DNA of 59,083 nt from positions 1 through 59,083 of the forward strand of contig JAADFK010000118.1 in NCBI GenBank assembly GCA_013152925.1. The letters run 5' to 3'. A program made the translations under genes and the position numbers. The stretch comes from Acidobacteriota bacterium. GTDB lineage: Bacteria; Acidobacteriota; Thermoanaerobaculia; Thermoanaerobaculales; Sulfomarinibacteraceae. Within the stretch, counting starts at the first letter, position 1. Each line of letters starts with the position of its first letter. The notes beneath the pieces were generated by a model. The model searched no databases and was not told where the DNA came from. It was given only the letters and a program-made list of their open reading frames with translations. Below, one piece after another: positions 5,162-37,306 of this stretch.

Positions 5162-5173
5162 GGTGTCTCCTTG

Positions 5174-12056: not shown

Positions 12057-12257
12057 ATGAGTCCGTTTACATGGATTCGGGAGTTTATGGCGGTCTTCGC
12101 ACTGGCCTTCGTGGTCACCGCTGCGGTTTCATTCCTGTGGAGCCTGACGGCCCACGGAGCCGGCGCCGTGGACTGGGGATCGGCCGTGCGTTTCGGGATC
12201 ATCCTGGGCACCGTTCTGACCTGGATGAAGGCCCGTGACACCGGGAGGTCCGGCTGA
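12057..12257 (+). CDS. Small two-TM hypothetical protein
   Basis: GGGGAGG RBS then MSPFTWIREFMAVFALAFVV...DWGSAVRFGIILG. Confidence 0.65.
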   Translation: MSPFTWIREFMAVFALAFVVTAAVSFLWSLTAHGAGAVDWGSAVRFGIILGTVLTWMKARDTGRSG

Positions 12258-15027: not shown

Positions 15028-16799
15028 CGGATGGTCCCCCGCCGCTGGGGCGCGCTGACGAAGGGCAGCCACCCGGCGAAGCGGGCGGTAACGGCGAGCA
15101 GGGCCCCCCGCGTTCGCCGCCGGCTTCCCTCGACGGTTTCCGTCTGGTCCCACAGCTGGGCCAGGAGAGCGTACCGGCCGAAATGCAGCTGGGCCGTTCC
15201 CTCGATCCGCCGGCGGTCCACGTCAGGACCCTGGGAGACCTCGCTGACGTTGTCGTTGTAGTTGACTCTCAGCGTGAGGAACCGCAGCGGCGCCCAGTGG
15301 ACGCTGGCGGCGAAGAAGCGGACGTTCTGGCGGATTTCGGAGCGGCCTGTGGTCTTTCCGGCATCGATGGTGCATCCCACACGGGGACCCGTGAGGGTAA
15401 CATCCAGGATGTCCGAGTCCACGGTCACCGGGACGATCTGGAAGCTCTCCTGCTTGCGGCGGCGGTGTTCCAGATAGGTGCTCAGATGCCAGCGTCTGAA
15501 CCGGCGGCGCAGGGTGACGCGGGCCCGGGCCCCGTCGTGGATACCGACACGCTCGTACTCCGTGCCGAGGTCGGGGAGCTCCACCAGGGCATCGCCGACG
15601 GTGCGCAGCTCGTTGTGGGCCACGGCCAGGTCCAGCTCGGCCCGAAGACGCTCCTCGGAGCCGGTTCCAAGAGTGCCGCCGGCCGACCAGGCGACCACCG
15701 TGGTCCGCTGGGAGCCGCCGTCCCACGACGTGTCGATCCTGGAGCTGCTGAGCCCGCCGTTGAGGCTGAGGTCGTACCCCTCGCCCGCACGGTTCCACGA
15801 CACGCTGACGCCGGCGGTCGGGGCCTTCACCGTGGTGTCGCCGCCCTGTTGCAGGGTGTAGCTGGCCGTCGGGATCACCTGGACGGCCGAGACGGCATGC
15901 CAGACGTAGCGCGCGGCCACGGTGTTGGTGGTGGTGGTCCGCTCGGCGTTCCGGCTGAGGCCGCCGGTGTAGGAGAGATCCACCAGGTCGCTGCGCGGTG
16001 TGGTGTAGACGAACCGGCTGCGAAGCCGCGCCGTGTCCACCGTGTTGCTGGTGTCCTCGTAGTCGAAGCTGCGGTGGAATCCGATGCCGCTGAGGTCCCA
16101 GCGCCAGCTGTCCGAGAGCAGGCCGTGCTCGTCCACCGTCAGGGTGTAGTCGTCGGTGGTGTAGCGGGTCCGGCCGTAGCGCCGGTACTGCCGTTCGAGG
16201 CGGTAGTGGTGGTTGATCCTGGCCGACGAGCCGGACCAGTCGAGGTACTGATGGATGAAGGCCTCGTCGCGGACCTTCGGGTCGATGAAGCTGGTGTCCG
16301 TCCGCTGGGTGCTGGCGGACAGCCCGCGGAAGATCCCCCCCCGGAAACGGACCCTCGCACCCCAGCTGGTGGTGGCATCCGCCAGGCCCGTGGTGGCCAG
16401 GGGGTCGTCGCTGTTGAGAACGTAGCCGTAGCGGCTGTGGGACAGAAAAAAGTGGGAGGGGTACAGCCCGAAGGGCAGGAGGGCGAGCTGCACCCTGAAG
16501 CCCAGCCGGTTGTTGTCAGGAGCCGTCGTGCCGGAGTAGTTGGAGAGCAATCCGTCGAGGCCGAGGCGGAACCGCGCGATGGCCGGGTGAATGATGAAGC
16601 CGTTCATACCGAGGTTCAGACGGAAGCTGCGCTCGGTGTAGTCGGTCAGGGCTCTTCCCTCGATCTCCGTCAGAAAGGACCGTTGCTGGAGCCCCAACAG
16701 CGCATCCCACGACCACTGACCGAAGAGCTGCCCCGCGGCATTCCGCGGGACGAGGAACGTTGCCCCCACCAGGAGCAGCGCCACGCCCCATCTGCGCAC
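15024..16799 (-). CDS. Putative large outer-membrane beta-barrel (porin/secretion channel)
   Basis: Signal peptide, then ~560 aa of alternating amphipathic strands rich in Y/R/S/T; no heme motifs. Confidence 0.7.
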   Translation of the reverse strand: MRRWGVALLLVGATFLVPRNAAGQLFGQWSWDALLGLQQRSFLTEIEGRALTDYTERSFRLNLGMNGFIIHPAIARFRLGLDGLLSNYSGTTAPDNNRLGFRVQLALLPFGLYPSHFFLSHSRYGYVLNSDDPLATTGLADATTSWGARVRFRGGIFRGLSASTQRTDTSFIDPKVRDEAFIHQYLDWSGSSARINHHYRLERQYRRYGRTRYTTDDYTLTVDEHGLLSDSWRWDLSGIGFHRSFDYEDTSNTVDTARLRSRFVYTTPRSDLVDLSYTGGLSRNAERTTTTNTVAARYVWHAVSAVQVIPTASYTLQQGGDTTVKAPTAGVSVSWNRAGEGYDLSLNGGLSSSRIDTSWDGGSQRTTVVAWSAGGTLGTGSEERLRAELDLAVAHNELRTVGDALVELPDLGTEYERVGIHDGARARVTLRRRFRRWHLSTYLEHRRRKQESFQIVPVTVDSDILDVTLTGPRVGCTIDAGKTTGRSEIRQNVRFFAASVHWAPLRFLTLRVNYNDNVSEVSQGPDVDRRRIEGTAQLHFGRYALLAQLWDQTETVEGSRRRTRGALLAVTARFAGWLPFVSAPQRRGTIR

Positions 16800-16805
16800 G
16801 TGGAG

Positions 16806-17792
16806 CTACTCCCCCCCCTCACCCTGGCGCAACGCCGGATCGAGGATGACCACCGGATGTTTGGCCTGTACCTCGTCATACCACCGCTTTTCCGCCCTCT
16901 TGAGCGCAGCCTTCTCCAGCTCCTTCCGGAGCATCGGCGCCGCTTCTTCGAAGCTCAGGGTCCGGCCGGGGCGGGCCTCCTTGACCAGCAGGAGATGGAC
17001 TCCCTCCCTGGTCCGGATGGGGCCCACGATGGATCCCACCGTGGCCTTCCAGGCCGCCTTCTCCAACGCCGGTTGGAGCCGTCCCCGGTGAACCCAGCCA
17101 AGGTCACCGCCCTTGATCCGGTACATCCCCTCGGAATCCCGGGCGGCCAGGTCGGTGAAGGGCGTGCCCGCCTCGGCCTCGGCCTTGATCTTTCGCGCCT
17201 CGGCCTCCCGTTTCGCCCACCGGGATCCATCGGCCGAGGGCGGCACCTTGAGCAGGATGTGGTAGAGATGCAGAGAGGGGGGCATCTTCCAGCGCGCGAC
17301 GTTGGCATCGTACGCCTTCCGAACGGCCGCCTCCGGGACCTTGGCCTTCTCCGTGACGAAGCGCCGGTACGCCTCCTGACCCAGCAGGGTCTCGGTGAGC
17401 GCGCGCACGTGATCCTCCCTGGTCCAGCCGTTGGCCTTCAGAGAACGCTCGTACTCCGTGGTCCCAAGCTGGATTTCCATGGCCGCCCGGCGACCCTCGG
17501 CATCCTTGGTTGGAGGTTTCAGCCCCCGGTCCCGGGCGCCCAGAACGTCCAGCTGGCGGTGGATCAGCGCTTGGAGCTGCTGGCGCCGAAGCGTGTCGAG
17601 CATCGCCTCGGGGAGCCGCTTGTGGTAGTACCCGGAGTTGACCGCCCGCTGGACGGCCAGATCGAGCTCCGCACGGGTGATGACCCTATTGCCCACCCTG
17701 GCGACGATATCAGCCTCGGCGGCCCTGGCCGGAGCCGCAAGAACGAACACTCCCGACATCGCCATGGCGGCCGCGAGCCAGCTCTTCATCAT
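16806..17792 (-). CDS. Parvulin/SurA-type peptidyl-prolyl isomerase
   Basis: Signal peptide; IVARVGNRVIT, HILLK, F.DLA...S...KGGDLGW, GPIRT.EG.HL. Confidence 0.9.
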   Translation of the reverse strand: MMKSWLAAAMAMSGVFVLAAPARAAEADIVARVGNRVITRAELDLAVQRAVNSGYYHKRLPEAMLDTLRRQQLQALIHRQLDVLGARDRGLKPPTKDAEGRRAAMEIQLGTTEYERSLKANGWTREDHVRALTETLLGQEAYRRFVTEKAKVPEAAVRKAYDANVARWKMPPSLHLYHILLKVPPSADGSRWAKREAEARKIKAEAEAGTPFTDLAARDSEGMYRIKGGDLGWVHRGRLQPALEKAAWKATVGSIVGPIRTREGVHLLLVKEARPGRTLSFEEAAPMLRKELEKAALKRAEKRWYDEVQAKHPVVILDPALRQGEGGE

Positions 17793-17892
17793 GTGTCCCA
17801 TGGGGTGATGCTCCTCCGTTTTCCGGACAGCGATTCATGCCACGCCGTGCGCGGCCGATTATCTCACGGACACTGGACAATTCTGACAAACC

Positions 17893-17921
17893 GGCGGGGA
17901 CCGGTGGTACCGGTCCCCGCC
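17893..17921 (-). terminator. Stem-loop (terminator or RNA stabiliser) directly after the main omcE-like gene
   Basis: Perfect 13-bp stem ggcggggaccggt / accggtccccgcc, followed by GGTTTGT on the minus strand. Confidence 0.6.
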
Positions 17922-17946
17922 TTCGGATCGCTGGTTCGTCTCCCGA

Positions 17947-18621
17947 CTACTTGATGTGGCAGGTGGTGCAGAGCGCGCTGGCGGTGTTGTCCATCACCAG
18001 GAAGGGCACGTTCGTCGGATCATGCACCTCGTGGCAGGAGGTGCACTGGACCTTGCTGTTGATGAGGAGCGCCGCCACCGCCGTGTCTGTGGCTGGATCG
18101 TTCAGGGCGCCATCGGCGGTCGCCAGGGCTGTGTCGTAGGTGAAGTTGACGGGATGATCGTCGGTCAGGTCCGTCCCCAGGTTGGCCGTGCTGATGATCA
18201 GTCCACCGGAATCGATTCGCCCGGAAATGGCCGTGATGGTCGGCGTGGTATCCTCGTTGGGCGGGTTGTACATGCTGGCAACGGAGACCGTGCCGTCGTG
18301 ACAGGACAGGCAGAGGTTCGAGGTCGGCGCCGTACCGGCCGTGGCGCCGCCAAGGTCCGTGACGTCGGTGGCGTCCAGCGTCGAGCTCGAGTAGGTGCCG
18401 TAGCTCGCCGTTGAGGACAGCGTGTGGTTCCACAGGGGGTACTGGCCGTTGGCCGCGCTGGCCTGGTGAGGGGTGTGGCAGAACACACAGACGCGGGTCA
18501 CATCGGTGGCAGGGGTCCCACCGGTGGTGCTCAGGTCGTGTTTCGAGCCAACGATGGTCTGCGCGTTGGCCATGACGGCGGTGACAAGCACCGCCAGGCA
18601 GATGATCAAAACTCTCTTCAT
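17947..18621 (-). CDS. omcE: OmcE-family tetraheme cytochrome c, candidate nanowire subunit
   Basis: GGAGG RBS and signal peptide. KHDLS...CVFCHTPH...PLWN...CLSCHDG...NLGTDLTDDHPVNF...CTSCHEVHD...PFL...LCTTCH.K matches the recalled Geobacter OmcE motif order throughout. Confidence 0.85.
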   Translation of the reverse strand: MKRVLIICLAVLVTAVMANAQTIVGSKHDLSTTGGTPATDVTRVCVFCHTPHQASAANGQYPLWNHTLSSTASYGTYSSSTLDATDVTDLGGATAGTAPTSNLCLSCHDGTVSVASMYNPPNEDTTPTITAISGRIDSGGLIISTANLGTDLTDDHPVNFTYDTALATADGALNDPATDTAVAALLINSKVQCTSCHEVHDPTNVPFLVMDNTASALCTTCHIK

Positions 18622-18690
18622 GATTCCTCCCTCGTTCTCCATATTTTCCCCCCACCCCCTCGAATCGCGGGTGCGAGTGCCAACAGGAGT

Positions 18691-18706
18691 TGCAACCTCC
18701 GTGCCA
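18691..18706 (-). promoter_or_regulatory. sigma54 -24/-12 promoter for omcE
   Basis: TGGCAC-GGAGG-TTGCA, a perfect consensus. Confidence 0.85.
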
Positions 18707-18958
18707 GCCGTGTGGAGGCCCCTGCTGCGGCAGGTGACCCGTGGGCGCGGACGAGGACCGTCGGTCCCGGGGCTCGTTGAGAAACCCGCCCCAACCGGCT
18801 CTTTGGGGTCCATTTCAGTGGAATTGCACGTCTCCTCAAGCGTCCAAGGGAAGCCCTCGCCGCCGGATCCGCCGGGAAAGGGACCCGCACGGGCGCAGGC
18901 GTTGCCACCTGCAATGGGCGGAGCGGCCTCCCGGAGGTGTTTCCAGACCCGCAGGAAT

Positions 18959-19006
18959 GGGGTGAAAAGGCGCAGCCAACGGCGCCGGGCTGGGGATTAT
19001 TCCCCA
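18959..19006. promoter_or_regulatory. Paired palindromic sites (TGGGG-N6-CCCCA), candidate enhancer
   Basis: TGGGGATTATTCCCCA at 18991-19006 and a weaker GGGGTGAAAAGGCGCA at 18959-18974. Confidence 0.55.
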
Positions 19007-20058
19007 CTCTTCGGCTCGATGAAGCGGAAGAGCTGAACCCGCTTGTTGAGCTGGTCCACCACGGCGAAGAAGGGCCCATGGACTGCCACGCCGCCGGGGA
19101 GCTGGAACTGGCCGGGGCCGCTGCCGTTTTCGCCGACGAAGGTCAGCAGCCTGAGGTCGGCGTCGAAGATCTGGACGTTGCCGAAGGCGGCGTCGGTGAC
19201 GAAGACCAGGCCGTCGGCGTTGACGGCCACGTCCTTGGGCCGGACGAAGTTGCCGAAGCCAACGCCCAGGGCGCCGAAGGTCTCCAGCACCTCGCCGTCG
19301 GTGGTGAACACCTGGACGCGGGAGTTCATCTGGTCGACGACGAAGAGATCGCCCTCCGGCGAAAACGCCAGGGCGGAGGGGAAGTTGAACTGGCCCGGTC
19401 CCGTGCCCCGGGATCCGAAGCTCATGACGATCTCGCCGGTTCGGAGATCGAAGACCACGACCTTGTGGGCCTTGGAGTCGGTGACGTAAAGCCGGGTGCC
19501 GTCGGGCGAGACCTTGGCGTCGGTCGGATTGACCAGCTCTCCCTGGTGGCCGAAGACCTTGAGCAGCTTGCCCTCGGGCGAGAAGGCCACAACCTTGGTC
19601 AGGCCGGGATCCGCCACGTAGATCGTGCCGTCAGGCCCCACGGAGACACCAAGGGGAACCTTGAGACGGACCGCTCCCTTGACGCCGATCACGTCCATCT
19701 TGCGGCCGGCGCGGTCGAAGCGCACCAGGGCGCTGGTTCCCGGGTCGGTCACGAGGATCCGGTTCTGGCCGTCCAGGGCCACGCCGAAGGGCTTCTTGAG
19801 GAAGTCCCACGGGCTGTGGGGGCTCGAGCCGATGAGCGCCTTCTCGAAATTGGAGCGTGGCTCCACGTCGAGGCGGCTGTGGATGATGTCCACGAGCCGG
19901 ATGCGGGGCGTGTCCGGAGGTGGCGGCCACACATACTCGGCGTACTTGTCCTCGCGGCTCTTGGCCTCGGTGGGCTCGGCCTTGTGGACCGTGGTGCAGG
20001 CGAGGCTCCCGGCGGCCAGCGCCAGGGCGAGAACGAAACGGCAGGCTCGGGTCATCAT
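18997..20058 (-). CDS. NHL-repeat six-bladed beta-propeller lipoprotein
   Basis: Lipobox SLAC; VWPPPPDTPRI; repeated FG..G...GQF..P...A; GGAGG upstream. Confidence 0.9.
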   Translation of the reverse strand: MMTRACRFVLALALAAGSLACTTVHKAEPTEAKSREDKYAEYVWPPPPDTPRIRLVDIIHSRLDVEPRSNFEKALIGSSPHSPWDFLKKPFGVALDGQNRILVTDPGTSALVRFDRAGRKMDVIGVKGAVRLKVPLGVSVGPDGTIYVADPGLTKVVAFSPEGKLLKVFGHQGELVNPTDAKVSPDGTRLYVTDSKAHKVVVFDLRTGEIVMSFGSRGTGPGQFNFPSALAFSPEGDLFVVDQMNSRVQVFTTDGEVLETFGALGVGFGNFVRPKDVAVNADGLVFVTDAAFGNVQIFDADLRLLTFVGENGSGPGQFQLPGGVAVHGPFFAVVDQLNKRVQLFRFIEPKSGE

Positions 20059-20072
20059 CTCGGTCCTCCGGA

Positions 20073-21824
20073 TCACTTGGGATGGCAGTGGGCGCAGGCC
20101 TCGAAGGTGGTCCTGGCACCCCAGCGCAGCAACAGGCGCGACCGGCCCTTGTGGGGGTTGTGGCAGCTCAGGCAGTGGAGCGTACCCTCGAAGTGGGCGT
20201 CGTTTCGCTTGAGCTCCTCCGCGCTCGGCGTTCCCAGCACCCGGTGGTTGGTCACCGGGTGACCGCGGGTGCCGTCCGGGCTGAGCCTGAGGGACGCCAT
20301 GACGCGGGCGACCTCCGCCGGGATCTCGAACTGGCCCAGCACCTGCACCGGCTTCGTGGAGCCCCGCGGCGGCGTGTGGCTCGCATCGTGACAGCTGAGG
20401 CAAAGCGCGTCCGGATCCTTGCGCAGGAGGTGCTTCCGTGAGCCCCCGTGGGGCTCGTGGCAGGCCCGGCAGCCGATCAGCGTGATGGCGCCGTGGGCCA
20501 CCTCGTTCGGGCCGGCTCCCATGTCGTCGTGACAGCTCAGGCACTCCTTGCCGGCCGGCTCCTTGACCAGGTGGTCCTGGGCGCTGGCGTGGGGGTTGTG
20601 ACAGGTGGTGCAGGGCGCCATCTCCAGGGCCGCATGGGGGAAGGCGGCCTGCTTGATCGTCTCACCGATCGCGTCGTGACAGGTCAGACACAGGCTGGAC
20701 TCACCATCGTCCATCAGCTTGTTGTACGCCCCCTCGTGGCAGGTGTCGCAGCCCTCGAGGACGGGGGGATGAACGGTCTTGGCCAGGAGGTGCTCGTTGC
20801 CGTCGCCGTGGGGCGTGTGGCAGCTGACGCAGGGCAGCGTGTTCATGTCGGCGCCGAGGTGCGCCGTACGGAGCTCCTTGTCGTCGGCGTCGTGGCATTC
20901 CAGGCACAGCGCGGGCGTGGCCTCCGTCAGCAGGTGCCGTTGGGACGCGTCGTGGGGCTTGTGGCAGTTGGTGCAATCCTCGGCGGCGGCCGCATGCCCG
21001 GTGCCGGCTCTCGCCGCCTTGACGATCTCCGGATGGCACTTCTCACAGAGGTCGGGACCCCCGGCAACCAGCAGGGAGGCGTTGTCGCTCATGTGAGGGT
21101 TGTGACAGGCGACGCAGACCTTCCGGTTGCGCCGGCGATCGAGGGCCGGATGAACGCTGACCGCCTTGGGGTCGACGATCTCTCCGTGGCAGGAGGTGCA
21201 CACCTTGGCACCGCGGGCGCGCAGCCTGACCCGGCCCGCGAAGGGCTTGCGGTGGCACGCATCGCATTCACCCTCGCCGAAGGGCGGGTGCTGGACCGAA
21301 CCGAGCAGCATGTTCGGCGCCTCGCTTCCGTGGGGCGCGTGACAGGCGAGACAGTTGACCTGCTTCCCCAGCTGGCCGCCATGCTTGGGCTGGAGCCCCT
21401 CCATGTCGTGGCATTCAAAACAGAGGGCGGGAACGGCCTCGTTGAGGAGGTGTTTCTGGGTGCTGCCGTGGGGGTCATGGCAGTTGAGGCACGAGTCAGT
21501 GACGGGGGCGTGCGAGCTCGCCAGCTTGCCCTCGGCCGCCTTCTCCTTGTCGTCGTGACACTCCAGGCAGAGGGCGGGGACCTTCTCGTTGAGCCCGATG
21601 GTCGTGCCCGTGCTGGAGATCTGGACATCGTGGCAGGAGGTGCAGTCCTCCTCGGCCGGGGGATGGACCGAGGTCTTGCCCCGGAGAAGCTTCCCGTGGC
21701 AGGTGGAGCACCTCGAAGCCTCCACCGAGACGAGCCGCGGATGCGAGCCCGCCACGGCCACGGGCGCGAAGGCGATCATGGCAAACGATGTGATCAACGC
21801 TGGACGTACGATCCACTTCAACAC
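20073..21824 (-). CDS. Large periplasmic multiheme cytochrome c (21 CxxCH)
   Basis: GTG start with GGAGGA RBS; signal peptide. 21 CxxCH counted in repeating H-x-P...CxxCH-x-PH...LCxxCH units. Confidence 0.92.
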   Translation of the reverse strand: MLKWIVRPALITSFAMIAFAPVAVAGSHPRLVSVEASRCSTCHGKLLRGKTSVHPPAEEDCTSCHDVQISSTGTTIGLNEKVPALCLECHDDKEKAAEGKLASSHAPVTDSCLNCHDPHGSTQKHLLNEAVPALCFECHDMEGLQPKHGGQLGKQVNCLACHAPHGSEAPNMLLGSVQHPPFGEGECDACHRKPFAGRVRLRARGAKVCTSCHGEIVDPKAVSVHPALDRRRNRKVCVACHNPHMSDNASLLVAGGPDLCEKCHPEIVKAARAGTGHAAAAEDCTNCHKPHDASQRHLLTEATPALCLECHDADDKELRTAHLGADMNTLPCVSCHTPHGDGNEHLLAKTVHPPVLEGCDTCHEGAYNKLMDDGESSLCLTCHDAIGETIKQAAFPHAALEMAPCTTCHNPHASAQDHLVKEPAGKECLSCHDDMGAGPNEVAHGAITLIGCRACHEPHGGSRKHLLRKDPDALCLSCHDASHTPPRGSTKPVQVLGQFEIPAEVARVMASLRLSPDGTRGHPVTNHRVLGTPSAEELKRNDAHFEGTLHCLSCHNPHKGRSRLLLRWGARTTFEACAHCHPK

Positions 21825-21853
21825 GGCTTGAGCTCCTCCGGAAAACACTCGAG

Positions 21854-22240
21854 CTATCCCGGCGATTGTGCGGCGGCATCCCGGGAGCCGACGCGATCGA
21901 GCAGATCCCGAACGGCCAGGCGCAGCTGCCGGATCTCCACAGGGGAGACAGCGGCATCGGCCACCGCCTGCGGCACGGGCTCGCCCGCCGGGAGGGCGGT
22001 CAGGGAATAGTAGAGGAGATAGGGGATCTCCGGGCGGCAGGAGGTGCAGATCTTCAGAAGGTCGTCCCACGGCAAACGCCCGGCGGTGAGACCGATGAGA
22101 ACGGCGTCCGGCGGCGCCTCGGAGAGCACCCGGCGCGCCTCCTCGAAGGTGGGCAGCACGTCGTAATCCACCCCCGGCGGCAGCAACCGGGTGATCGTCC
22201 ACGCCGTCAGCGGCGAGCAGTCGAGAATCGCGATCCGCAT
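21854..22240 (-). CDS. Stand-alone atypical (pseudo-)receiver domain protein
   Basis: REC fold pattern MRIAILD...FEEARRVL...PPDAVLIG, with the phosphoacceptor position occupied by Gly; contains CTSC. Confidence 0.6.
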   Translation of the reverse strand: MRIAILDCSPLTAWTITRLLPPGVDYDVLPTFEEARRVLSEAPPDAVLIGLTAGRLPWDDLLKICTSCRPEIPYLLYYSLTALPAGEPVPQAVADAAVSPVEIRQLRLAVRDLLDRVGSRDAAAQSPG

Positions 22241-22285: not shown

Positions 22286-23644
22286 TCACCCGGCGAGCTC
22301 GGGAAAACGTTTGAGCCGGTAACGGAGCTGGTCCCGGGTGATCCCCAGGAGCTCGGCCGCCCGGGTCTGGTTGCCTCCCGTGGCCCGCATGGCCCTCCGG
22401 ACCAGCTCCCGCTCGGCGGTCTCCAGGGGGACGATGCCCGCCAGGGGATCGTCCGGAGACGAGGCGACCGGCCCCCCGGTTTCCGGATCGAGAATGAGGG
22501 AAGATGGCGTGATCTCCTCGTTCTTCTCCAGGATCATGGCCCGCTCCACCACGTTGCGCAGCTCCCGCACGTTGCCCGGCCACGAATAGCCCAGCAGGAG
22601 ATTCTCGGCCTGCCGGGTCAGACCGCTGAAACGCCGGCCCATGGCGGGTTGCAACATCCGGAGGAAGGCCCGTGCCAGCGGGAGAACATCCTCCTGGCGT
22701 TCCCGGAGCGGCGGTACGGTGATGGGGAAGACGTTGAGCCGGTAGTAGAGGTCCGCACGGAAGGCGCCGGCGGCCACCATCTTGCGGAGATCCTGGTTCG
22801 TCAGGGCAATGACGCGGGTCTCCACACGGATCTCCCGGAGCCCTCCCACGCGCCGGAAGACCCTGGACTCGAGAAACTGCAGCAGCTTGGCCTGCACCTC
22901 GAGCTTGAGCTCGCTGATCTCGTCGAGCACGACGCATCCCGCCGCAGCCAGCTCGAGAGTCCCCTTCTTGGAGGCCTTGGCGTCGGTGAAGGCCCCGCGC
23001 TCGTGGCCGAAGAGCTCGCTTTCCACCAGGTGCTCTGGAAGCGCCGCGCAGTTGATCTCCAGGAGGGGCTTGTGCCGGCGTTCCGAGGCGGCGTGGATGT
23101 ACCGTGCCACCACGTTCTTGCCGGTCCCGCTCTCGCCCTGGATGAGAATGGTGTCCACGTGGGACTGGGCCACCTGGCAGGCGATCTCCAACACCCGCTT
23201 GAACGCCGGCGAGTGGGCCACGATGTCGACGCTGGTGCGGCTCTCCTGCTCACGGCGGGCGACCTGGGCGGTGAGGCACTCTTCCCGCCGTGCCAGCGAC
23301 CGGTCGATCAGCTCGAGGAGCTCCGGGGTGTCCACCGGCTTCGAAAGAAAATCGAAGGCGCCGAGCTTCATGGCGCGGACGGCATCCTCCACCTCGCCGA
23401 CGGCGGTCATGACGATGGTGACGGTACTTTCCAAGTCGGCGTGGTGGGCCTCGAAAAAATCGAGACCGTGCCCGTCCGGCAGGGCGAGGTCCAGGAGCAT
23501 GAGGTCCGGCTGGCGCCTCCTCAGGCGTTCGGCCGCCTCCGCAAGGTTGCCGGCTTCATCGACGGCATGACCGGCCTTCGCAAGCCGCTTGGCGAGCGTC
23601 CAGCGAAGCAGCTCTTCGTCCTCCACCAGCAGGATCAACGCCAT
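22286..23644 (-). CDS. sigma54-dependent response regulator (NtrC/AtoC family, REC-AAA+-Fis HTH)
   Basis: LLVEDE...LLDLALPD, GESGTGKN, ESELFGHERGAFTDA, WPGNVRELRN, NQTRAAELLGI. Confidence 0.95.
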   Translation of the reverse strand: MALILLVEDEELLRWTLAKRLAKAGHAVDEAGNLAEAAERLRRRQPDLMLLDLALPDGHGLDFFEAHHADLESTVTIVMTAVGEVEDAVRAMKLGAFDFLSKPVDTPELLELIDRSLARREECLTAQVARREQESRTSVDIVAHSPAFKRVLEIACQVAQSHVDTILIQGESGTGKNVVARYIHAASERRHKPLLEINCAALPEHLVESELFGHERGAFTDAKASKKGTLELAAAGCVVLDEISELKLEVQAKLLQFLESRVFRRVGGLREIRVETRVIALTNQDLRKMVAAGAFRADLYYRLNVFPITVPPLRERQEDVLPLARAFLRMLQPAMGRRFSGLTRQAENLLLGYSWPGNVRELRNVVERAMILEKNEEITPSSLILDPETGGPVASSPDDPLAGIVPLETAERELVRRAMRATGGNQTRAAELLGITRDQLRYRLKRFPELAG

Positions 23645-25138: not shown

Positions 25139-25282
25139 TTGGCAACCCCCCAAGCGGGAGATTGTACCCCAGCTCAATTGTTCCTGACGGCAAGTTGCGA
25201 TAGTCTTGGCCCAGAAGCGAAGCGATCCGGAACGCTCATGCCACACGGCACGGTGGCCGGCGTGGAACACGGCCACGCGCGG

Positions 25283-25298
25283 CGGAACGGTTCTTGCT
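25283..25298 (+). promoter_or_regulatory. Probable sigma54 promoter for the plus-strand cytochrome operon
   Basis: CGGAAC-GGTTC-TTGCT (GG-N10-GC), 13 nt before a GGAGG RBS. Confidence 0.6.
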
Positions 25299-25323
25299 CG
25301 CTGTTTGACTGGAGGTGGCGACC

Positions 25324-28300
25324 GTGAATGCCTGGGGAACCATCACCGACATCGGTGGGGAAGTGGGGATTTTCCCCCACCTCCGGACCGTGCTGCTCGG
25401 AGCCGTCATGATGGCCGCGGCCACGGGAGCTTTCGCCGCCCAGCCCGTGGTCGATTCCTTTGAGGCCACCCCGGCCTCCGTGCAACCCGGCGCCACCGTG
25501 ACGCTCACCGTCACGGCCCACGATCCCGACTGCCCGGACAGCTGTACCTCGGGATGCGGCCAGTACATCCGTGCGGACCTGACCCAGTGGGACCCCGGCG
25601 CCGGCAGCTTCGACAGCACGGACAACGGGAGCAGCGGCTCGCCCTACACCGCCTCGGCCGTGTGGAGAGCCCCGTCCGCTGAAGGACCGGTCACCGTGAC
25701 GGTCACCCTCGCCGACAGCGGGACCTTCATGTGCGGCGGGCGCCAGACGGCCAGCGCCCAGGTGGTGATCCAGGTCAGCGTCAACGCCGGCCAGGAGCCG
25801 GTGATCACCTCCCTGACCATCGACCCGAACCCCGTGAGGACCGGAACCGAGGCGACGGTCACCGCCACGGCCGAGGACCCTCAGGGTGATCCCGTCAGCT
25901 TCAGCTGGAGCATCGACCGGGGCACCATCACGCCCGGAACGGAGGGCACGGCCACCTACAGCGCTCCGGCGACCCCCGGGCCGGTCAACCTCATCTGTAC
26001 CGCCAGTGACCCGGGGGGCGCGAGCTCTTCCAAGACGCTGACCTTTTCGGTAACGGACGTGGAGCCGGAGGTGCTCCTGGACGGCGAGATGGCGGCGCCT
26101 CACGACGTGGCCGCCAACGTCTTCGGAGATCTCCTGGTCGTCGATGACGGCCTCGGCGGCCTGGCCATCGTCAACGGCGTCACGGGAGAGGCCCTCACCG
26201 TGGTACGTCTGGCCGGCGCCACGAGCGTTGTGGAGGACTGGCTGGGCCGCGTTGTGGTGGGAACCCGGACGGGCGGCATCCTGCTTCTCGCCCAGGACGG
26301 AGCCCTGACCGGCACCCTCGTCCCGCCGACTCTCCTGGGGCCCGTGACCGATCTGGCCGCGGATGCAGCGGGCCGGAAGATCTGGGCTCTCTACGGTACA
26401 GCCGCCCGGGTGGTCGCCTACGACGCGGGCGGCAACCAGGTGGCCGCCTTCGGGGAACGGGGCGGGGGACCGGGCGAGCTGCGCGAGCCGGTGGCCGTGG
26501 CGTGGTCACCGGTGGGCGAGGTGCTGGTCGCCGATGCGGCGCTGGGCCAGGTGCTGGCCTTTTCGCCGTCCGGGTCCTGGTTGAGGTCCATGGGCGGCCT
26601 GGGAGCCGCCGCCGGCGAGTTCACCCGGCTCGGCGGCGTGGCGGCCACCGCCGCGGGCGTCATCTACGCCACAGACACCTTCCAGAGCCGTTTCCAGAGC
26701 TTCAATCCCGACGGATCCCTCCGGGAGGTCGTCGGTGTCTTCGGGCACGCGCTGGGCGAGCTCGACACACCCGCCGGCATCACGCTGCTGGGCTCGCCCC
26801 CCAGGCTGGCCGTGGCCTCGGTCAACGGGCCCAACGTGCAGATCTTCCGTCTCGACGACACGCAGCCGGCCACGCCTCAGGCCGCGGTGAGCCCGGCCAG
26901 CCTGGACCTGGGAAGCGTGCCGGTGGGCGAGCGAAGCGACCCCGCGGTCGTCACCCTTCGCAACACGGGCACGGTGCCCGTGGGGATCTATGGCATCGAC
27001 AGCCCCGGCCTGTTCCAGGTCCAGAGCACATGTGGCAACGGGCTCGATCCCGGAGAAAGCTGCACGGCCACCGTTGTCTTCGAGCCGGAGCGCGCCGGCA
27101 GGGTCGTCGGCACCCTGGCGTTCCGTTGCAGCGGCGTGGGCGACCAGGCAGTGACGCTCGTGGCCCGGGGCACCGCGCTGGAGGCGGCCATGGCGGCGAT
27201 CTCGGAGAGCTCGGTGGACTTCGGTGGGCTCCCCGTGGGGCGGACCAGTGGGGTCCGCACGCTGGTCGTCACCAACACGGGCGGGGTACAGCTCAACGTC
27301 AACTCCGTGCTCCTCGGCGGTGCTGCAGCGTCTCAGTTCGTCGTGCAGAGCGACACCTGCACCGGAGCGGCTCTCGGGGCCGGCGAGACCTGTGTCATCG
27401 GCGTGGCCTTTGCGCCCACTGGCGAGGGCCGGCATTCGGCGATTCTCACGGTGGAGAGCAACTCGGCGGGAGGTCCCCTGGCGGTCGATCTCTCCGGCGA
27501 GGGCGTGGAAGCTCTCCCCATCCCCACGGTGGGACCGTGGGGAACGGGGCTGCTGGTCCTCCTCCTGGCGCTGGCCGGGCTCCTGGGCCTCGGCCGCCGG
27601 CGGGCCGTCATCGGGTTGATGATGGTGTCAATGCTGGCGACCGCCGGCGTGGCCTTGGCGGTGGATCCCCCCCACTGGTATTTCGGAATGGACTGCGCAT
27701 CGTGCCACACCGGGCACAACGCGGCCGGGGGCAACCTGACCGTTTCGGCCGGCAACGTCAACCTCTGCCAGTCCTGCCACAACCCGTCGGGGCTGGCCTC
27801 GGCCCTGCCCATCAACTCCTCGGACCGTGCCGTTCCGGGCCAGGCCGGAACCTCGCACCGCTTCGACATGCCGGTCGATGCGTCCCACCAGGGCGCCCAG
27901 ATGCCCACCAACCCCGAGATGGCCGCGCGGATCATGGGGGGTAATGTCGTCTGCTCCACCTGTCACGACCAGCATGCCGCCAAGGCCAGCAACCGGGGAC
28001 AGCTGCGGGTCTCCGTTCCAGAGCGCCTGACCTCCCTGGGGAGCACGGGACAGGTCTCGGTTGGGGGAAGCTACACTGGCGCCGGCGGCTCGTCCTACCT
28101 GATCGAGATCACCATCGCCGACGCCCACTTCCGGTACTCCAAGGACGGCGGGTCCACGTGGGCCGGGGAGGCGGATATCGGAACCGGCGTGCCCCTGGAC
28201 AACGGCCTGACGGTGACCTTCTCCGGGGGGAGCTTCGCACTGGGGGAGCGGTGGCGCTTCACGGCTTCCTACCCCTTCCTCCGGGCGGCGCTGGACCAGG

Positions 28301-28608
28301 GCGACAACACGAGCGGCGACAGGTTCTGCCGGGACTGCCACTCGCTCTGGACCATGGATTACAACGCCGTCGAGGTCTTCGACTGGACGTGGAAAAGCCA
28401 TCCTGTCGGCGTGGCCCTCAACGCCAACGGGCGCGGTTACGATCGCACGACGCCCCTGGACGGCAACGGCGCCGTGCAGGGTAGCGGCGGGGGGGCCGGT
28501 GTCGCTTCGAGCGTCCTCAAGCTCGACTCCGGCGGTCTCGTCCAGTGCCTCACCTGTCACGGCGTCCACTACACGGACAGCAATACCCTGACGGAGGACG
28601 GACCATGA
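25324..28608 (+). CDS. Multidomain surface protein: Ig-like + NHL propeller + 2 choice-of-anchor-D-like domains + internal IPTL-CTERM + second signal peptide + pentaheme cytochrome
   Basis: Signal peptide ..AFA; A.DP.GD Ig repeats; NHL repeats; two 'L.FG.VPVG..S....TL.NTG...C...L..GE.C..V.F.P' domains; IPTVGPWG-TM-RRR; CASCH, CQSCH, CSTCH, CRDCH, CLTCH. Start codon uncertain. Confidence 0.85.
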   Translation: MNAWGTITDIGGEVGIFPHLRTVLLGAVMMAAATGAFAAQPVVDSFEATPASVQPGATVTLTVTAHDPDCPDSCTSGCGQYIRADLTQWDPGAGSFDSTDNGSSGSPYTASAVWRAPSAEGPVTVTVTLADSGTFMCGGRQTASAQVVIQVSVNAGQEPVITSLTIDPNPVRTGTEATVTATAEDPQGDPVSFSWSIDRGTITPGTEGTATYSAPATPGPVNLICTASDPGGASSSKTLTFSVTDVEPEVLLDGEMAAPHDVAANVFGDLLVVDDGLGGLAIVNGVTGEALTVVRLAGATSVVEDWLGRVVVGTRTGGILLLAQDGALTGTLVPPTLLGPVTDLAADAAGRKIWALYGTAARVVAYDAGGNQVAAFGERGGGPGELREPVAVAWSPVGEVLVADAALGQVLAFSPSGSWLRSMGGLGAAAGEFTRLGGVAATAAGVIYATDTFQSRFQSFNPDGSLREVVGVFGHALGELDTPAGITLLGSPPRLAVASVNGPNVQIFRLDDTQPATPQAAVSPASLDLGSVPVGERSDPAVVTLRNTGTVPVGIYGIDSPGLFQVQSTCGNGLDPGESCTATVVFEPERAGRVVGTLAFRCSGVGDQAVTLVARGTALEAAMAAISESSVDFGGLPVGRTSGVRTLVVTNTGGVQLNVNSVLLGGAAASQFVVQSDTCTGAALGAGETCVIGVAFAPTGEGRHSAILTVESNSAGGPLAVDLSGEGVEALPIPTVGPWGTGLLVLLLALAGLLGLGRRRAVIGLMMVSMLATAGVALAVDPPHWYFGMDCASCHTGHNAAGGNLTVSAGNVNLCQSCHNPSGLASALPINSSDRAVPGQAGTSHRFDMPVDASHQGAQMPTNPEMAARIMGGNVVCSTCHDQHAAKASNRGQLRVSVPERLTSLGSTGQVSVGGSYTGAGGSSYLIEITIADAHFRYSKDGGSTWAGEADIGTGVPLDNGLTVTFSGGSFALGERWRFTASYPFLRAALDQGDNTSGDRFCRDCHSLWTMDYNAVEVFDWTWKSHPVGVALNANGRGYDRTTPLDGNGAVQGSGGGAGVASSVLKLDSGGLVQCLTCHGVHYTDSNTLTEDGP
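25333..25379. promoter_or_regulatory. Paired TGGGG-N6-CCCCA-type sites
   Basis: TGGGGATTTTCCCCCA at 25364-25379, with a weaker TGGGGAACCATCACCG starting 31 bp earlier. Confidence 0.5.
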
Positions 28609-31439
28609 ATCTCCGCGGCGCGTTGGCAGGTCTGTTCCTTGGCGCGATCCTGGTCTTTCCCATGGTTGCAACCGCCGGCAACGACACGGTCGTCGTCGGT
28701 TCAAACGTCCTGGTCTCCTCGTGCACCCAGCTGACGGTCACGGCAAGGTTCACCGGAGATGACAACGGCGACGGTGTTGCCGAGGTCGAGTACAACACGG
28801 CCGACGCCTGGCCTGGAACAGTCGCCTGCGATGCCCTCTCCGGGGGCTCTCCCCGCCAGTGTCTGGTCCCGGATCTGACCGCCGGCCAGAGCTACTGGGT
28901 GCGGGTGACCTTCACCGATCCTGACGGCGTTTCCGGGCCCAACCCCGAGGTGCTCGGCCCGTACACCCTCCCCGCGTGCGGGACCGACACGGTGGCGCCC
29001 ACCGTGCTGTTCATCGTCCCGGCCCAGGGCGCCGTGATCGGCGGGACCGACCGGTTCAAGGTCCAGGTGTGGGACGAAGGAGGCTTGGCCGCCAACCCCT
29101 TGAGCTGGTACGTGGACGGAGGAGCCTCCTCCACCACGGCCGTCAACAACACCAACTACGACTGCGGTGCCAACTGCACCGTCTGGGAGCTCGACGTGGA
29201 CGTCACGGGGCTGGCCAGGGGCTGGCACGAGGTGACCGCGGAGGTGACCGACCAGGCGGGCAATGTGGCCCGGGCGGTGCGGGGGTTCTGGGTGCGCAAC
29301 AGGGGAACCCGGCCCGCGGGGAGCGGGGAGCTCCTTCGTCGAACCAACAGCTCCCAGCTGTGCCGGGACTGCCACAACCTGGCGACGCACTCGAGCCAGC
29401 ACACGGGGACCACCTACGGGAGCTGGGCCGTGGACTGCCTGACCTGTCACACGCCACACCAGACCCTCAACATCTACCTGATCCGGGGGGACCTGCAGAC
29501 GCCGTCCAGTGGGACAAAGAGCATCACCTTCTGGGAGGATGACCGGGCTGGCGGAACGAACCCCAACCGCAGCTACCTGGGTACCGTGCCGCCTCCGAGC
29601 TCCGCGCCCTACGACGACGGCATCTGCGAGGCCTGCCACACGCGAACCAAGTACCACCGGAACAACGCCTCCGGCAACCACACCCACAACGCCGACCGCC
29701 GGTGCGTCAACTGTCATCCCCACAACCAGGGCTTCGCCGCCACCGAGAGCAAGGGCGGCACGGACTGCGCCGGCTGCCATCCCGACATCTGGGAGGGCAT
29801 GAACGGGACGACGGCGAAGACGAGCCGCCATACCATCGGCTCGGTGCTCGGCGTCAACGACAGCTTCACGGACACCAACGTCGCCTGGACGTCGCCTCTG
29901 ACCGGCGTGGCGCCCGCCGACCGCTCCTGCGTCAACATGTGCCACCCCGACCACGTCCACAACACGCCGGGCGGCACGAGCCACGACTACAACGTGCACC
30001 AGGACGCCTCGACCCAGGCGAGCCGTGCCGTGGGCCGGAATGTCAACGGTGAGATCATCGCCGGGACGCCGGCCCGGACGGATTTCGACGCCGCGCAGAC
30101 CAACGGCGGGATGTGCGTTTCGTGCCATCAAAACGCCGTGAGCACCGGGCGGCCGGCCATCGACGCGGCAGCCTACGGGGCCTCGGCCCACAACTTCACC
30201 TCCAACACCTATGGGGCTTGGACCTACGATCTTCATGACGGCTCGAGCTTCGACCGCAATTGCACCAAGTGCCACGCGGATCGTGGTGACGCACGCCCCG
30301 GAGCCTCGTCGAGCCCCTTTGGTGCGGTCCACTTTTCGGACTACCCGAAGCTGCTCACCGGCTCGGTCAACCCGGCCGGCGCCGCTGCCACCTTCGTCTG
30401 CTACACCTGCCATGGCAACGGGAGCACCGGCGCCGATCTTTCCGGGAAGGATCTGGCCACGGTGATCGCCAAGACGTCGAGCCACCCGGTGAACGCGGAC
30501 GCCGTCCACGACACGGTGGCCGAGGAGAGGGCGACCTACAACGATGGCACCTTCTCCGGAGGGAACCGGCACGTCAACTGCCTGGACTGCCACGCCACCC
30601 ACCGGGCGCAGTCCGGGCTCCACACGCCGGCCGCAGCGGGTCTCGCGGGGGCCCTGACGGGCGCCACCGGGATCGGCATCGCCTCCCTTCCCAACGAGTG
30701 GGCCGTGTTCGGCTCGGGGAACTTCACAACGAATCCAGAGAGTGCGGCGGTGGAGTACCAGGTCTGCTTCAAGTGCCACAGCTCCTTCGCCTTCGGCACT
30801 TCCTCCCCGACCGGAGAGACCGACCAGGCGCGGGAGCTCAACGTCAACAACGATTCGTATCACTGGGTCATGACCGATCAGACGGCGACGCAGGCGCCCG
30901 ACTGGACCACCGCCAACGACACGCCCCGGACCAACAGCACCAGCCGGTACATGACCTTCACCTCGGGCTCGCCGTGGGCCAAGGACTCGCCCATGGTCTG
31001 CTCCGACTGCCACGGCAACGACGACGCGGCGGCGGTCCAGGGTCCTCACGGCTCGGCGAACGCACCAATCCTCAGGAAGCCCTGGGACGCATCGAGCGGG
31101 ATCAACACGCCCAACGGTCTGTGCTTCAACTGCCACGACTACCAGACCTACGCGGGCAAGAACGACAGGGTGGGGGTCAGCGGGTTTGCCAGGTACAGAA
31201 GCATGAGCTACCGGAACCTGCACGGAACCCATTCGGGGGAGTTCCCGACGACGTTCAAGTGTGCCTGGTGCCACTCGGCCGTTCCCCACGGGTGGAGCCG
31301 CAAGGCGCTCATCGTGCTGACCTCCGATCCCGCCCCGTACAACGCGGGCGGCAACACGGCGCGGATCATCTCCTGGTACATCTCCAACAGCCGGAACTAC
31401 CGGAAGAGCTCGTGTGGCACGGTCAGCGGATGTCATTGA
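28605..31439 (+). CDS. Large extracellular-type multiheme cytochrome with N-terminal FN3/Ig-like domains (13 CxxCH + CX3CH + CX5CH)
   Basis: ATGA-coupled to the upstream gene; signal peptide; L.AGQSYWVRV and D.AGN Ig motifs; 13 canonical motifs plus CVNMCH and terminal CGTVSGCH. Confidence 0.9.
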   Translation: MNLRGALAGLFLGAILVFPMVATAGNDTVVVGSNVLVSSCTQLTVTARFTGDDNGDGVAEVEYNTADAWPGTVACDALSGGSPRQCLVPDLTAGQSYWVRVTFTDPDGVSGPNPEVLGPYTLPACGTDTVAPTVLFIVPAQGAVIGGTDRFKVQVWDEGGLAANPLSWYVDGGASSTTAVNNTNYDCGANCTVWELDVDVTGLARGWHEVTAEVTDQAGNVARAVRGFWVRNRGTRPAGSGELLRRTNSSQLCRDCHNLATHSSQHTGTTYGSWAVDCLTCHTPHQTLNIYLIRGDLQTPSSGTKSITFWEDDRAGGTNPNRSYLGTVPPPSSAPYDDGICEACHTRTKYHRNNASGNHTHNADRRCVNCHPHNQGFAATESKGGTDCAGCHPDIWEGMNGTTAKTSRHTIGSVLGVNDSFTDTNVAWTSPLTGVAPADRSCVNMCHPDHVHNTPGGTSHDYNVHQDASTQASRAVGRNVNGEIIAGTPARTDFDAAQTNGGMCVSCHQNAVSTGRPAIDAAAYGASAHNFTSNTYGAWTYDLHDGSSFDRNCTKCHADRGDARPGASSSPFGAVHFSDYPKLLTGSVNPAGAAATFVCYTCHGNGSTGADLSGKDLATVIAKTSSHPVNADAVHDTVAEERATYNDGTFSGGNRHVNCLDCHATHRAQSGLHTPAAAGLAGALTGATGIGIASLPNEWAVFGSGNFTTNPESAAVEYQVCFKCHSSFAFGTSSPTGETDQARELNVNNDSYHWVMTDQTATQAPDWTTANDTPRTNSTSRYMTFTSGSPWAKDSPMVCSDCHGNDDAAAVQGPHGSANAPILRKPWDASSGINTPNGLCFNCHDYQTYAGKNDRVGVSGFARYRSMSYRNLHGTHSGEFPTTFKCAWCHSAVPHGWSRKALIVLTSDPAPYNAGGNTARIISWYISNSRNYRKSSCGTVSGCH

Positions 31440-35403: not shown

Positions 35404-36576
35404 GTGGGGAAAAGTTCGCACGTCGTGGGTTTCGGCGAGGACCCGGACTGGGATACCGGCCGGGCTGCCGGGGCCGCCTTCGGCCGGCTCCGAGGGGTGG
35501 TCGCAGCCGGCCACGGCCTCCTGGAACAGGGCACGGAGGGCTACCAGAAGGCGCTGGAGAGCTCCTGCGCCCAGATCGGGGTGCCGGTGGGGCTGCTCTT
35601 CATCCTCCGCCCGGAGGGGGATACCCTCGAGCTCATGGCGAGCCAGGGGATTCCCTGCTGCCAGGGGGACGTCCCGACCATCGGGGTGCAGGAGGGTCTT
35701 TCCGGATGGGTCGCCGCCGCGCGGACCATGGTCGTCGTCAACGACGTGGAGGACGACGGCCGGTTCGGCCCGGTGTCGGCGCTCGGGTACCGGCGCCTGT
35801 CCGCCATCAGCGTGCCGCTCGAGCACGACGGTGACCTGCTCGGCGTCCTCACGCTGGCGAGCCCCCAACCCAACGCGTTCGCCACCGAGGATCTGCTGGT
35901 GGTGGAGGCGCTGGCGACAAACCTCTCGCTGGGGCTCCGGTGCCGGGAGTACCGGGAGGCCGAGGCCCGGAACTACCTCGGTATCATCCGTGGGCTCGCC
36001 ACGGCGCTGGAGGCCAAGGACGCGGTGACGCGAGGTCACTCGGCGAGAGTCGCCCACATGTGCCACCACATCGGGCTTGCCCTCGGCGTGGAACAGCCCG
36101 CACTGGAACGTCTGGAAGTGGCTGCTTCGCTCCACGACCTGGGCAAGATCGGCGTCCCCGAGGCCGTGCTGAACAAGCCCGGGCCGCTCGATTCTCACGA
36201 GCTGGAGCTGATACGGCGTCATCCCGCCGTGGGGGCGGAGATGCTGGAGGAGATCCCGCTGCTCTCGGATCTGGCACCGGTGGTGCGGGGCCACCACGAG
36301 CGCTTCGGTGGAGGAGGCTATCCGGACGGCCTTGAGGGCCACGGGATCCCGCTCCACAGCCGGATCATTGCGGTGGCCGACGCTCTCGATGCCATGCTCA
36401 TGCCGAGGCCCTACCGCCGGGACCGGACGGTGGACGAAGCGCTGGCCGAGCTTCGGGAGTGCTCGGGAACCCACTTCGATCCGCGGGTCGTGGAGGCCCT
36501 GACCCGGGTTGTGACCGCGGAGGGTTGCGGCCACTTCTTCTCGCCGCTCCCGCCGGCCTGCTGCACCGTCACTTGA
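35404..36576 (+). CDS. GAF + HD-GYP cyclic-dinucleotide phosphodiesterase
   Basis: EAKD..TRGHS.RV, LHDLGKIG, HHERFGGGGYPDGL, RIIAVADALDAM. Start placed downstream of the sigma54 promoter. Confidence 0.9.
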   Translation: MGKSSHVVGFGEDPDWDTGRAAGAAFGRLRGVVAAGHGLLEQGTEGYQKALESSCAQIGVPVGLLFILRPEGDTLELMASQGIPCCQGDVPTIGVQEGLSGWVAAARTMVVVNDVEDDGRFGPVSALGYRRLSAISVPLEHDGDLLGVLTLASPQPNAFATEDLLVVEALATNLSLGLRCREYREAEARNYLGIIRGLATALEAKDAVTRGHSARVAHMCHHIGLALGVEQPALERLEVAASLHDLGKIGVPEAVLNKPGPLDSHELELIRRHPAVGAEMLEEIPLLSDLAPVVRGHHERFGGGGYPDGLEGHGIPLHSRIIAVADALDAMLMPRPYRRDRTVDEALAELRECSGTHFDPRVVEALTRVVTAEGCGHFFSPLPPACCTVT

Positions 36577-37306
36577 CGTGACAGGTGGTACAGAGCTGGC
36601 TGCCGTCGTTCGGTATCCGGAGGAAGGGGACGTTGGCCGGGTCATGGACGTTGTGGCAGGTGGGGCACTCCACCTTTCCGGCGTAGAGCGGGACCAGCGC
36701 CCATCCGGCGTTCAGGTCCGGCGGCGTGTTGAACATGGGGTCCTGCGCGGTGGTCGGGTAGGTCATGGCGATGGGATGATCATCGGAGAGGTCCGTTCCC
36801 TGCCAGACCGGTGGAGGATCCCCGTAGATCGGCCCGTGGCAACGCCGGCAGTTGGGGTAGGAGGATGTGTCCGGGATGCCACCAGGTCCAGGGGCGTTGA
36901 TCAGGTCGTGCTTGGTGCTCCCGGTGATACCGTTGACCACCGCCGTTCCGTTGGTTCCGTCATGGCATCCGAGGCACAGCATGGAAACCGTGGTGTTGGG
37001 GTTGCCAGGCGTCGTGTCCATGGTGGGGCTGGTGTAGACGGTAAAGGTCTCGTTGGTGTCGATGAAGCGGTTCCACAGCGGCGCCTGGATGGGTAGCGTC
37101 GGATTGGCAAAGTGCGGTGTGTGGCAGAACACGCAGACCCGGTCGGAGTACGGATCCACGCCAGTGGTGGAAAGATCGTGCTTCGAACCGAGAATGCTGG
37201 CGCCGATGACGACGCCGGTGGAAACCATGAAAACGACGATCCCAAGGCCGGCGGTCAGTCGAAACCGCAAGCCGCGCTTCTCATGAACGGTCCAATGTTT
37301 CGCCAT
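36569..37306 (-). CDS. OmcE-family cytochrome c with five CxxCH motifs
   Basis: GSKHDLS...CVFCHTPH...PLWNR...CLGCHDG...CRRCH...GTDLSDDHP...CPTCHNVHDP..PFLR...LCTTCHVK. Confidence 0.88.
   Translation of the reverse strand: MAKHWTVHEKRGLRFRLTAGLGIVVFMVSTGVVIGASILGSKHDLSTTGVDPYSDRVCVFCHTPHFANPTLPIQAPLWNRFIDTNETFTVYTSPTMDTTPGNPNTTVSMLCLGCHDGTNGTAVVNGITGSTKHDLINAPGPGGIPDTSSYPNCRRCHGPIYGDPPPVWQGTDLSDDHPIAMTYPTTAQDPMFNTPPDLNAGWALVPLYAGKVECPTCHNVHDPANVPFLRIPNDGSQLCTTCHVK

Follow-up and report, generated by a model that had tools for sequence, protein, structure and literature searches.

In this study, we analyzed a stretch of 59,083 nucleotides from a member of the Sulfomarinibacteraceae (Acidobacteriota; contig JAADFK010000118.1 of GenBank assembly GCA_013152925.1), in the following called the window, and in particular one gene whose predicted product combines an immunoglobulin-like (Ig)/NHL scaffold and a five-heme c-type cytochrome in a single chain. 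Between the two parts lies an internal IPTL-CTERM sorting tag, which leads directly into a second signal peptide. Judged by sequence comparison, the gene is an in-frame joining of a conserved gene pair. The fusion is real, conserved and recurrent.

The fused gene and its junction

The open frame at 25315-28608 (1097 codons; forward strand, as all features of the fused gene) is one uninterrupted reading frame. Its likely start codon is GTG at 25324, preceded by a putative ribosome binding site (RBS) at 25311-25316 and coinciding with the starts of homologues. A Sec-type signal peptide (25324-25437), judged by eye and kept in homologues, ends with A-F-A (aa 41) and thereby provides the N-terminal signal peptide expected of an IPTL-CTERM substrate. 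It is followed by two PKD/Big_9-like Ig domains (25441-26067; PF17963 and PF00801 above cut-off), a predicted NHL-type beta-propeller (26068-26850; NF035926 at aa 363-512 under cut-off, PF01436 in several homologues), and two choice-of-anchor D domains of the ASH/HYDIN Ig type (26872-27504; NF012200 with 112.8 bits in two stretches, PF15780, PF22544). The internal tag (27520-27603; TIGR04174 above cut-off) consists of the motif, transmembrane helix 1 and the basic cluster RRR (27595-27603). This cluster doubles as n-region of the second signal peptide, whose h- and c-regions (27604-27660) end with A-L-A (27652-27660) at a predicted signal peptidase I (SPase I) site, A782/V783. The remaining part (27661-28608) encodes a cytochrome of the paired-CXXCH type with 11 conserved His and CxxCH motifs at 27694, 27766, 27952, 28327 and 28546; a beta-domain recognized from fold matches (~28003-28272) is inserted between hemes 3 and 4. 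Scores of PF09699 and TIGR01905 above cut-off, the conservation of CxxCH and the maturation proteins encoded in the genome all agree with a multiheme c-type cytochrome of this class. Thus, both the coordinates given in an initial annotation of this DNA and its reading of an internal IPTL tag, RRR, A-L-A and five CxxCH motifs were borne out by the frame and by hidden Markov model scans.

The TIGR04174 scan proposed in that annotation placed the tag at aa 736-762, with 20.9 bits for the whole protein and 27.1 bits for the fragment (cut-off 20.5). Genome-wide there were 12 matches, among which only the fused protein scored above cut-off (27.8 bits). All 14 aligned fusions share I736, P737 and G743, and the adjacent residues vary. 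When 96 terminal tags were used to build a scoring matrix (their own leave-one-out scores having a median of 20.6 and a 10th percentile of 16.7), the tag of the window scored 23.8 and all 15 fused IPTL tags scored 14.0-25.3. With this motif invariance and terminal-like score, the fused tag looks alive. A C-terminal location is described as a signature of such tags in the part available of a bioRxiv paper by Haft; here, 335 residues come after the tag. The genome encodes an exosortase, namely exosortase H (XrtH; TIGR04177 with 117.5 bits, cut-off 86), the only one detected there, as well as SPase I and two PF01578 (cytochrome c maturation) proteins. The xrtH gene (L001:1423-2578, G000:C101) is preceded by a Ser/Thr kinase-like gene and followed by an overlapping gene for a membrane protein.

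The initial annotation had also asked for a check on a missed stop codon or indel at the junction. In four metagenome runs of one study, one contig each spans 25200-28800 with 122-125 substitutions and zero gaps; these contigs are assemblies and not raw reads, and with ~96.6% identity they represent another strain. In the region 27380-27800 there are 18 differences, and the 15 that are listed amount to four amino-acid changes and no stop, so that the frame is intact in the related strain and no stop codon was seen at the junction in its contigs. A search with aa 690-1097 yielded 27 proteins; apart from the protein of the window itself, 13 of these span the entire query, with 49-87% identity over junction and cytochrome. 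Altogether, 18 further proteins carry the fusion, giving 19 non-redundant fused proteins; homologues are therefore not always two genes, which would have spoken against a polyprotein. Among 77 genomes of the family, the fusion occurs in 5 (including that of the window), a separate cytochrome gene in 4, and in 2 the gene is cut by a contig end. Since the junctions in the other four genomes with the fusion are identical to P0006 and P0009-P0011, these counts are not additive.

The second signal peptide was assessed by comparison with relatives and not by a predictor. The (-3,-1) rule is satisfied in 19 of 19 fusions and in 58 of 59 stand-alone cytochromes. A strict version of the rule fits 17/19 fusions at the predicted site, compared to a maximum of 9/19 at 13 shifted offsets. 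Ala occupies position -1 in 17/19 fusions, including all 13 of the main clade, and position -2 is taken by 11 different residues, among them Q, R, E and N. In the main clade, the junction comprises 45-48 residues and a hairpin without acidic residues; pairwise identity at most positions of the h-region is 0.09-0.38 (0.71 at -9 and 0.50 at -3), and position -1 is invariant. The segment thus has the elements of a Sec/SPase I signal peptide, namely a basic n-region, an h-region, small residues at positions -3 and -1 and a free position -2, and the second helix appears to have remained functional as such. This comparative evidence supports the earlier suggestions that both halves are exported from one translation product and that SPase I would cut at A782/V783.

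Fused, split and differently tagged relatives

For comparison of fused and split forms, 76 loci (L151-172, L229-282) were combined with the fused proteins to give 78 distinct cytochrome domains, of which 19 are fused and 59 stand alone. Duplicates, rows without recognizable start and rows outside 290-420 aa were left out, and a few of the stand-alone rows are located close to the end of a contig. In the 59 stand-alone cases the cytochrome is a separate gene, and its own signal peptide ends at the same residue as the site in the fused proteins. An upstream open reading frame was available for 50 of them; 35 of these have at least 600 aa, and 32 of the 35 match the NHL part of the fused protein. 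Most of the upstream partners are untagged; in about six, a tag-like helix with basic tail was recognized by eye at the end of the protein (L154, L155, L161, L229, L230, L266). A need for fixed 1:1 stoichiometry, suggested previously as a consequence of the polyprotein layout, gains no support here, with 59 of 78 cytochromes separate and most partners untagged.

In a quick tree, the main fused clade is closest to L154, L155, L229 and L230, and in the two closest split lineages the upstream gene carries a terminal IPTL-like tag. In these nearest split relatives, the tagged gene stops at or close to the point where the cytochrome gene starts, and the fused layout would result from a short deletion that merges both basic clusters. 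On the same quick tree, a single origin of the 13 main-clade fusions was not rejected (p-AU 0.56), and a single origin of all 15 IPTL fusions was rejected (p-AU 3.35e-6). P0030 likewise falls among split genes in a FastTree of the N-terminal half. As the IPTL forms do not make up a single clade, at least two fusions or fissions must have occurred among them.

The same slot is also filled by other tags. In P0016 and P0031, a homologous NHL scaffold is joined to the same cytochrome via MYXO-CTERM (TIGR03901 above cut-off), in P0032 the same pair is fused through CFI-box-CTERM (76.5, cut-off 40), and P0029 has a similar Cys tag at the joint that gave no score at E 0.001. In these fusions, a basic cluster and a segment resembling a signal peptide come after each tag. 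The MYXO/CFI rows are long-branched and their placement is unsure; they may go back to one old fusion with tag swaps or to several fusions. Three unrelated tags in one position suggest that any tag combined with a signal peptide makes a self-resolving linker.

Conversely, the IPTL tag is found in front of other cargo. The 77 genomes contain 113 TIGR04174 matches, of which 96 are terminal, 12 internal, 4 without IP motif and 1 running into a gap. The 12 internal matches comprise 5 scaffold-cytochrome fusions, 6 proteins with other cargo behind the second helix and 1 atypical case. A profile of 11 hairpins, a search that is circular by design, retrieved 485 clusters at E 0.001; among the best 150 of these, 55 have an internal tag, 48 have a further hydrophobic segment that carries a loose A-x-A, and at least 8 are multi-unit.

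Several individual proteins from these searches deserve mention. P0130, P0131, P0133, P0136, P0138, P0141, P0142 and P0187 carry two or three IPTL tags per chain, some with duplicated units. L084, L121 and L049 (G013:C43, G006:C14, G005:C3) have an IPTL hairpin ~180-205 residues into the frame, followed by a shared short domain that sometimes heads long adhesin repeats. In L085 and L071 (G030:C38, G006:C5), Calx-beta-like repeats precede the hairpin and a very basic domain of ~130 aa follows it. L137 (G039:C22) has an IPTL tag in frame with an M1-type aminopeptidase and a helix that looks uncleaved; tags of similar proteins in G041 and G042 are terminal, and this fusion is possibly recent.

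Proposed processing of the fusion product

With moderate confidence, we favor that the product is a precursor which SPase I and XrtH would cut into two exported proteins. The scaffold would be exported by Sec until helix 1 halts transfer; RRR would stay in the cytoplasm and helix 2 would resume export. Restarted export by helix 2 is needed for heme attachment, which in c-type cytochromes takes place outside the cytoplasm. A cut by SPase I after A782, which we regard as likely, would then free the cytochrome with the N-terminus of its stand-alone relatives. In a further step, for which by analogy to archaeosortase there is a reasonably good case, XrtH would cut at or near the IP motif and the scaffold would be re-anchored. 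The fusion likely arose when the tag's basic tail merged with the basic n-region of the signal peptide behind it; we propose that the fusion was tolerated because processing restores both products.

A number of points weigh against this proposal. The sites in P0014 (Leu at -3, Pro at -2) and P0030 (Thr at -1) are atypical, and the A-x-A, which borders the start of a conserved domain, could have been inherited as a relic. The 17-21 residues of helix 2 in the main clade would suffice for an uncut anchor. Three of the 15 fused tags score under the 10th percentile of the terminal tags. XrtH is present in 70 of the 77 family genomes, and its presence is therefore permissive and not discriminating. 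No secretin of a type II secretion system, as a possible route to the outer surface, scored above cut-off in the genome (GspD matches were below). Finally, the literature searched gave no experiment on XrtH; the part available of one source states that, as of 2018, exosortases had not been analyzed experimentally (PMC6098224).

The low-scoring tags and the missing XrtH experiments could also be accommodated if SPase I alone cut the precursor, so that the cytochrome would be released, the scaffold kept in the inner membrane by the uncut hairpin, and the tag left unprocessed in the middle of the protein. The SPase I signature is indeed the best-conserved feature of the junction. However, I-P and G743 are invariant in 14/14 fusions amid varying neighbors, central tags are cleaved by archaeosortase according to the available part of a study on Haloferax (PMC7157517), and three unrelated tags fill the same position. 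We therefore consider it unlikely that SPase I acts alone.

A different outcome would result if neither signal was cut or only XrtH acted, with helix 2 tethering the cytochrome to the inner membrane. The hydrophobicity and length of helix 2 would permit this, and internal signal peptides can serve as anchors. On the other hand, Q, R, E or N at -2 and the helix-breaking G, S or P at -7 to -4 suit a c-region and not an anchor, and all 59 stand-alone relatives are without a partner-derived anchor, which makes a tethered cytochrome improbable as well.

Independent translation of the cytochrome from ATG 27619/27622, considered in the initial annotation, found no support as the main route, and a cytochrome made also or mainly by internal initiation within the fused frame appears very unlikely. 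The window does contain TTG/ATG/ATG/GTG at -15 to -12, and in four related fusions, start codons within helix 1 (-35 to -38) pair with an anti-Shine-Dalgarno motif at -4.7 to -6.0 kcal/mol. Nevertheless, the starts in the window (-15 to -10) pair at only -1.5 to -3.2 kcal/mol, compared to -6.9 to -11.0 kcal/mol in five split genes, and with no basic residue downstream they leave no basic n-region. Moreover, Met follows the basic cluster in only 2 of the 15 IPTL fusions, and the window is without a start codon at -35 to -38. An assembly error, or a stop codon that was lost only recently, with two genes as the true state, might be suspected from the 59 separate genes among the 78 cytochromes compared, but this can practically be dismissed given the frame kept in four independent assemblies of another strain and the junction of 45-48 residues shared by 13 main-clade fusions (60-87% identity or more).

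Possible electron-export context and comparison with known systems

The fused gene lies among further cytochrome genes. Its stop codon overlaps (ATGA) with the next gene (28605-31439, forward strand), which encodes an Ig-containing cytochrome with 13 CxxCH motifs, followed downstream by two double-c7 cytochromes and one paired-CXXCH cytochrome. Upstream, a putative sigma-54-type promoter motif (25283-25298, forward strand) is the only forward-strand match in the window to the consensus used, and an upstream motif was present in 6 of 9 loci checked. A sigma-54 two-component pair (regulator gene 22286-23644) sits between the fused gene and a complete, divergent OmcE-type nanowire cluster (12129-21866, reverse strand), which comprises genes for two NHL lipoproteins, a putative beta-barrel protein, a prolyl isomerase and multiheme cytochromes. 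Three sigma-54-type motifs, at 25283-25298 (forward) and at 22279 and 18706 (both reverse), face cytochrome operons on both sides of the regulator gene. Genes for a CusCBA-like heavy-metal efflux system (3721-11419, reverse strand) are located directly downstream of the OmcE-type cluster. Within the first codons of the fused gene (25333-25375), we also observed an imperfect inverted pair of a G/A-rich and a T/C-rich box, which is conserved, split relatives included, and likewise lies just past the start codon in L151, L153, L156 and L162. It may be a regulator site or an RNA hairpin, which would explain the unusually long n-region.

The OmcE homologue of the cluster is encoded at 17947-18624 (reverse strand; PDB 9yuq, E 1.7e-31; 7tfs, E 1.4e-30), ~10 kb from the fused gene, and is one of three OmcE-like tetraheme genes in the window, with the further ones at 13331-14029 and 36569-37306 (both reverse). 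Clusters of the OmcE type with a gene content as in this window are described in the accessible part of a recent source (PMC13712944), and NHL genes in cytochrome clusters in that of another (PMC9769857). Of the family genomes with this cytochrome, 9 of 11 have OmcE-like genes, versus 8 of 66 others (17/77 in total), with related genomes not being independent in this comparison. In 4 genomes an OmcE-like gene lies on the cytochrome's contig, ~10 kb away. Both products of the putative precursor are likely to serve this neighboring multiheme/OmcE electron-export system.

A model of the cytochrome from 63 sequences reached a pLDDT of 83.8; an earlier one from 9 sequences (pLDDT 45.6) was unusable. 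For its five hemes, the cytochrome has eleven His that are conserved in 62-63 of the 63 aligned rows; two of these owe their conservation partly to the selection patterns used. In the model, the beta insert of 90 residues resembles the outer domains of the flagellar junction proteins FlgL and FlgK (Z 9.9 and 9.2), and Foldseek matched this insert only. The predicted heme scaffold weakly matches OmcE 7tfs (Z 5.7, 115 aligned, rmsd 3.4) and OmcS 6ef8 (Z 4.5, 183 aligned, rmsd 5.2). Searching PDB sequences with the cytochrome profile yielded nothing below E 0.2, and a profile comparison with the neighboring OmcE homologue aligned only 27 columns around one CxxCH. An "anchor" subunit with one spare His and a 2n+1 count has been proposed to end OmcE filaments, as stated in the part available of the same source (PMC13712944), and 11 His for five hemes would fit this count. 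A doubtful idea is that the precursor builds a nanowire base or cap, in which the cytochrome released by SPase I would be docked on the XrtH-anchored scaffold and an OmcE filament. If so, the repeated fusion via three unrelated tags would reflect selection for co-export of the partners.

Independent of this idea, the locus is informative in several respects. Acidobacteriota are absent from the five phyla listed for OmcE-type clusters in the accessible part of that source (PMC13712944), which points to unrecognized electron-export machinery. Secreted polyproteins of bacteria have rarely been described, and the present family is a natural experiment, as fused and split versions of one pair are adjacent in the tree and three unrelated tags occupy the same slot. 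The heme-stainable C-terminal product would offer an easy read-out for exosortase H. Annotation pipelines that assume terminal tags would mis-localize both halves.

Precursors split at an internal signal sequence without a sortase tag are known from Bradyrhizobium japonicum FbcH, the cytochrome b-c1 precursor, from which a c-type cytochrome is released, and from the anchor/signal hairpins of the flavivirus type, where the next protein is released. One of the closest known systems is the model NF033207 ("midcut-by-XrtH"), compared here by name and scores only, which spans aa 715-815 (tag, helix 2 and beyond) and on which the literature searched contained no paper. The shared feature is an IPTL-type tag in the middle of a protein in an XrtH-encoding genome; here, the tag lies 735 residues into the protein, and its cargo, a complete cytochrome, has a gene of its own in relatives. 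By score, the protein is no member (30.1 bits, 28.9 in a second scan, cut-off 45), and none of the 77 family genomes passes the cut-off. The 87%-identical homologue P0003 passes it with 54.8. OmcE and OmcS of Geobacter (7tfs, 6ef8) resemble the cytochrome in the weak match of the heme scaffold, but differ in showing no sequence match to it in the PDB search, and the cytochrome has five hemes, 11 conserved His and the FlgL/FlgK-like insert of 90 residues. One IPTL-CTERM protein has been reported as an S-layer protein in the available part of a further study (PMC8671808). The literature searched on IPTL-CTERM, midcut, exosortase H, bacterial polyproteins and FbcH contained no description of the scaffold-cytochrome fusion family.

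Mid-protein tags as such are already catalogued (NF033207) and published, as far as the portions of the papers available show (PMC11980579, PMC7157517), and this limits the surprise of the general layout. In Myxococcus xanthus, MXAN_5598 has an internal MYXO-CTERM from a probable fusion of neighboring genes, and tags are said to function mid-protein (Guo, Haft and Wall 2025, PMC11980579, available part). It resembles our case in the internal tag created by a two-gene fusion and the proposed processing of the N-terminal part, but differs in tag and protease and in its beta-barrel/OmpA cargo, with processing being proposed there and no second signal peptide being mentioned in the available part. 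HVO_0405 of Haloferax volcanii is a fusion protein whose central PGF tag is cleaved by archaeosortase A, according to the part of the source at hand (PMC7157517). Gene fusion, central tag and an enzyme of the same exosortase/archaeosortase family are common to both; HVO_0405, however, is an archaeal Tat substrate and a strain-specific fusion, whereas the present fusion recurs and has been kept in different genera. On the sequences compared, what is new here is that tags of three unrelated kinds are found at the joint of one and the same gene pair.

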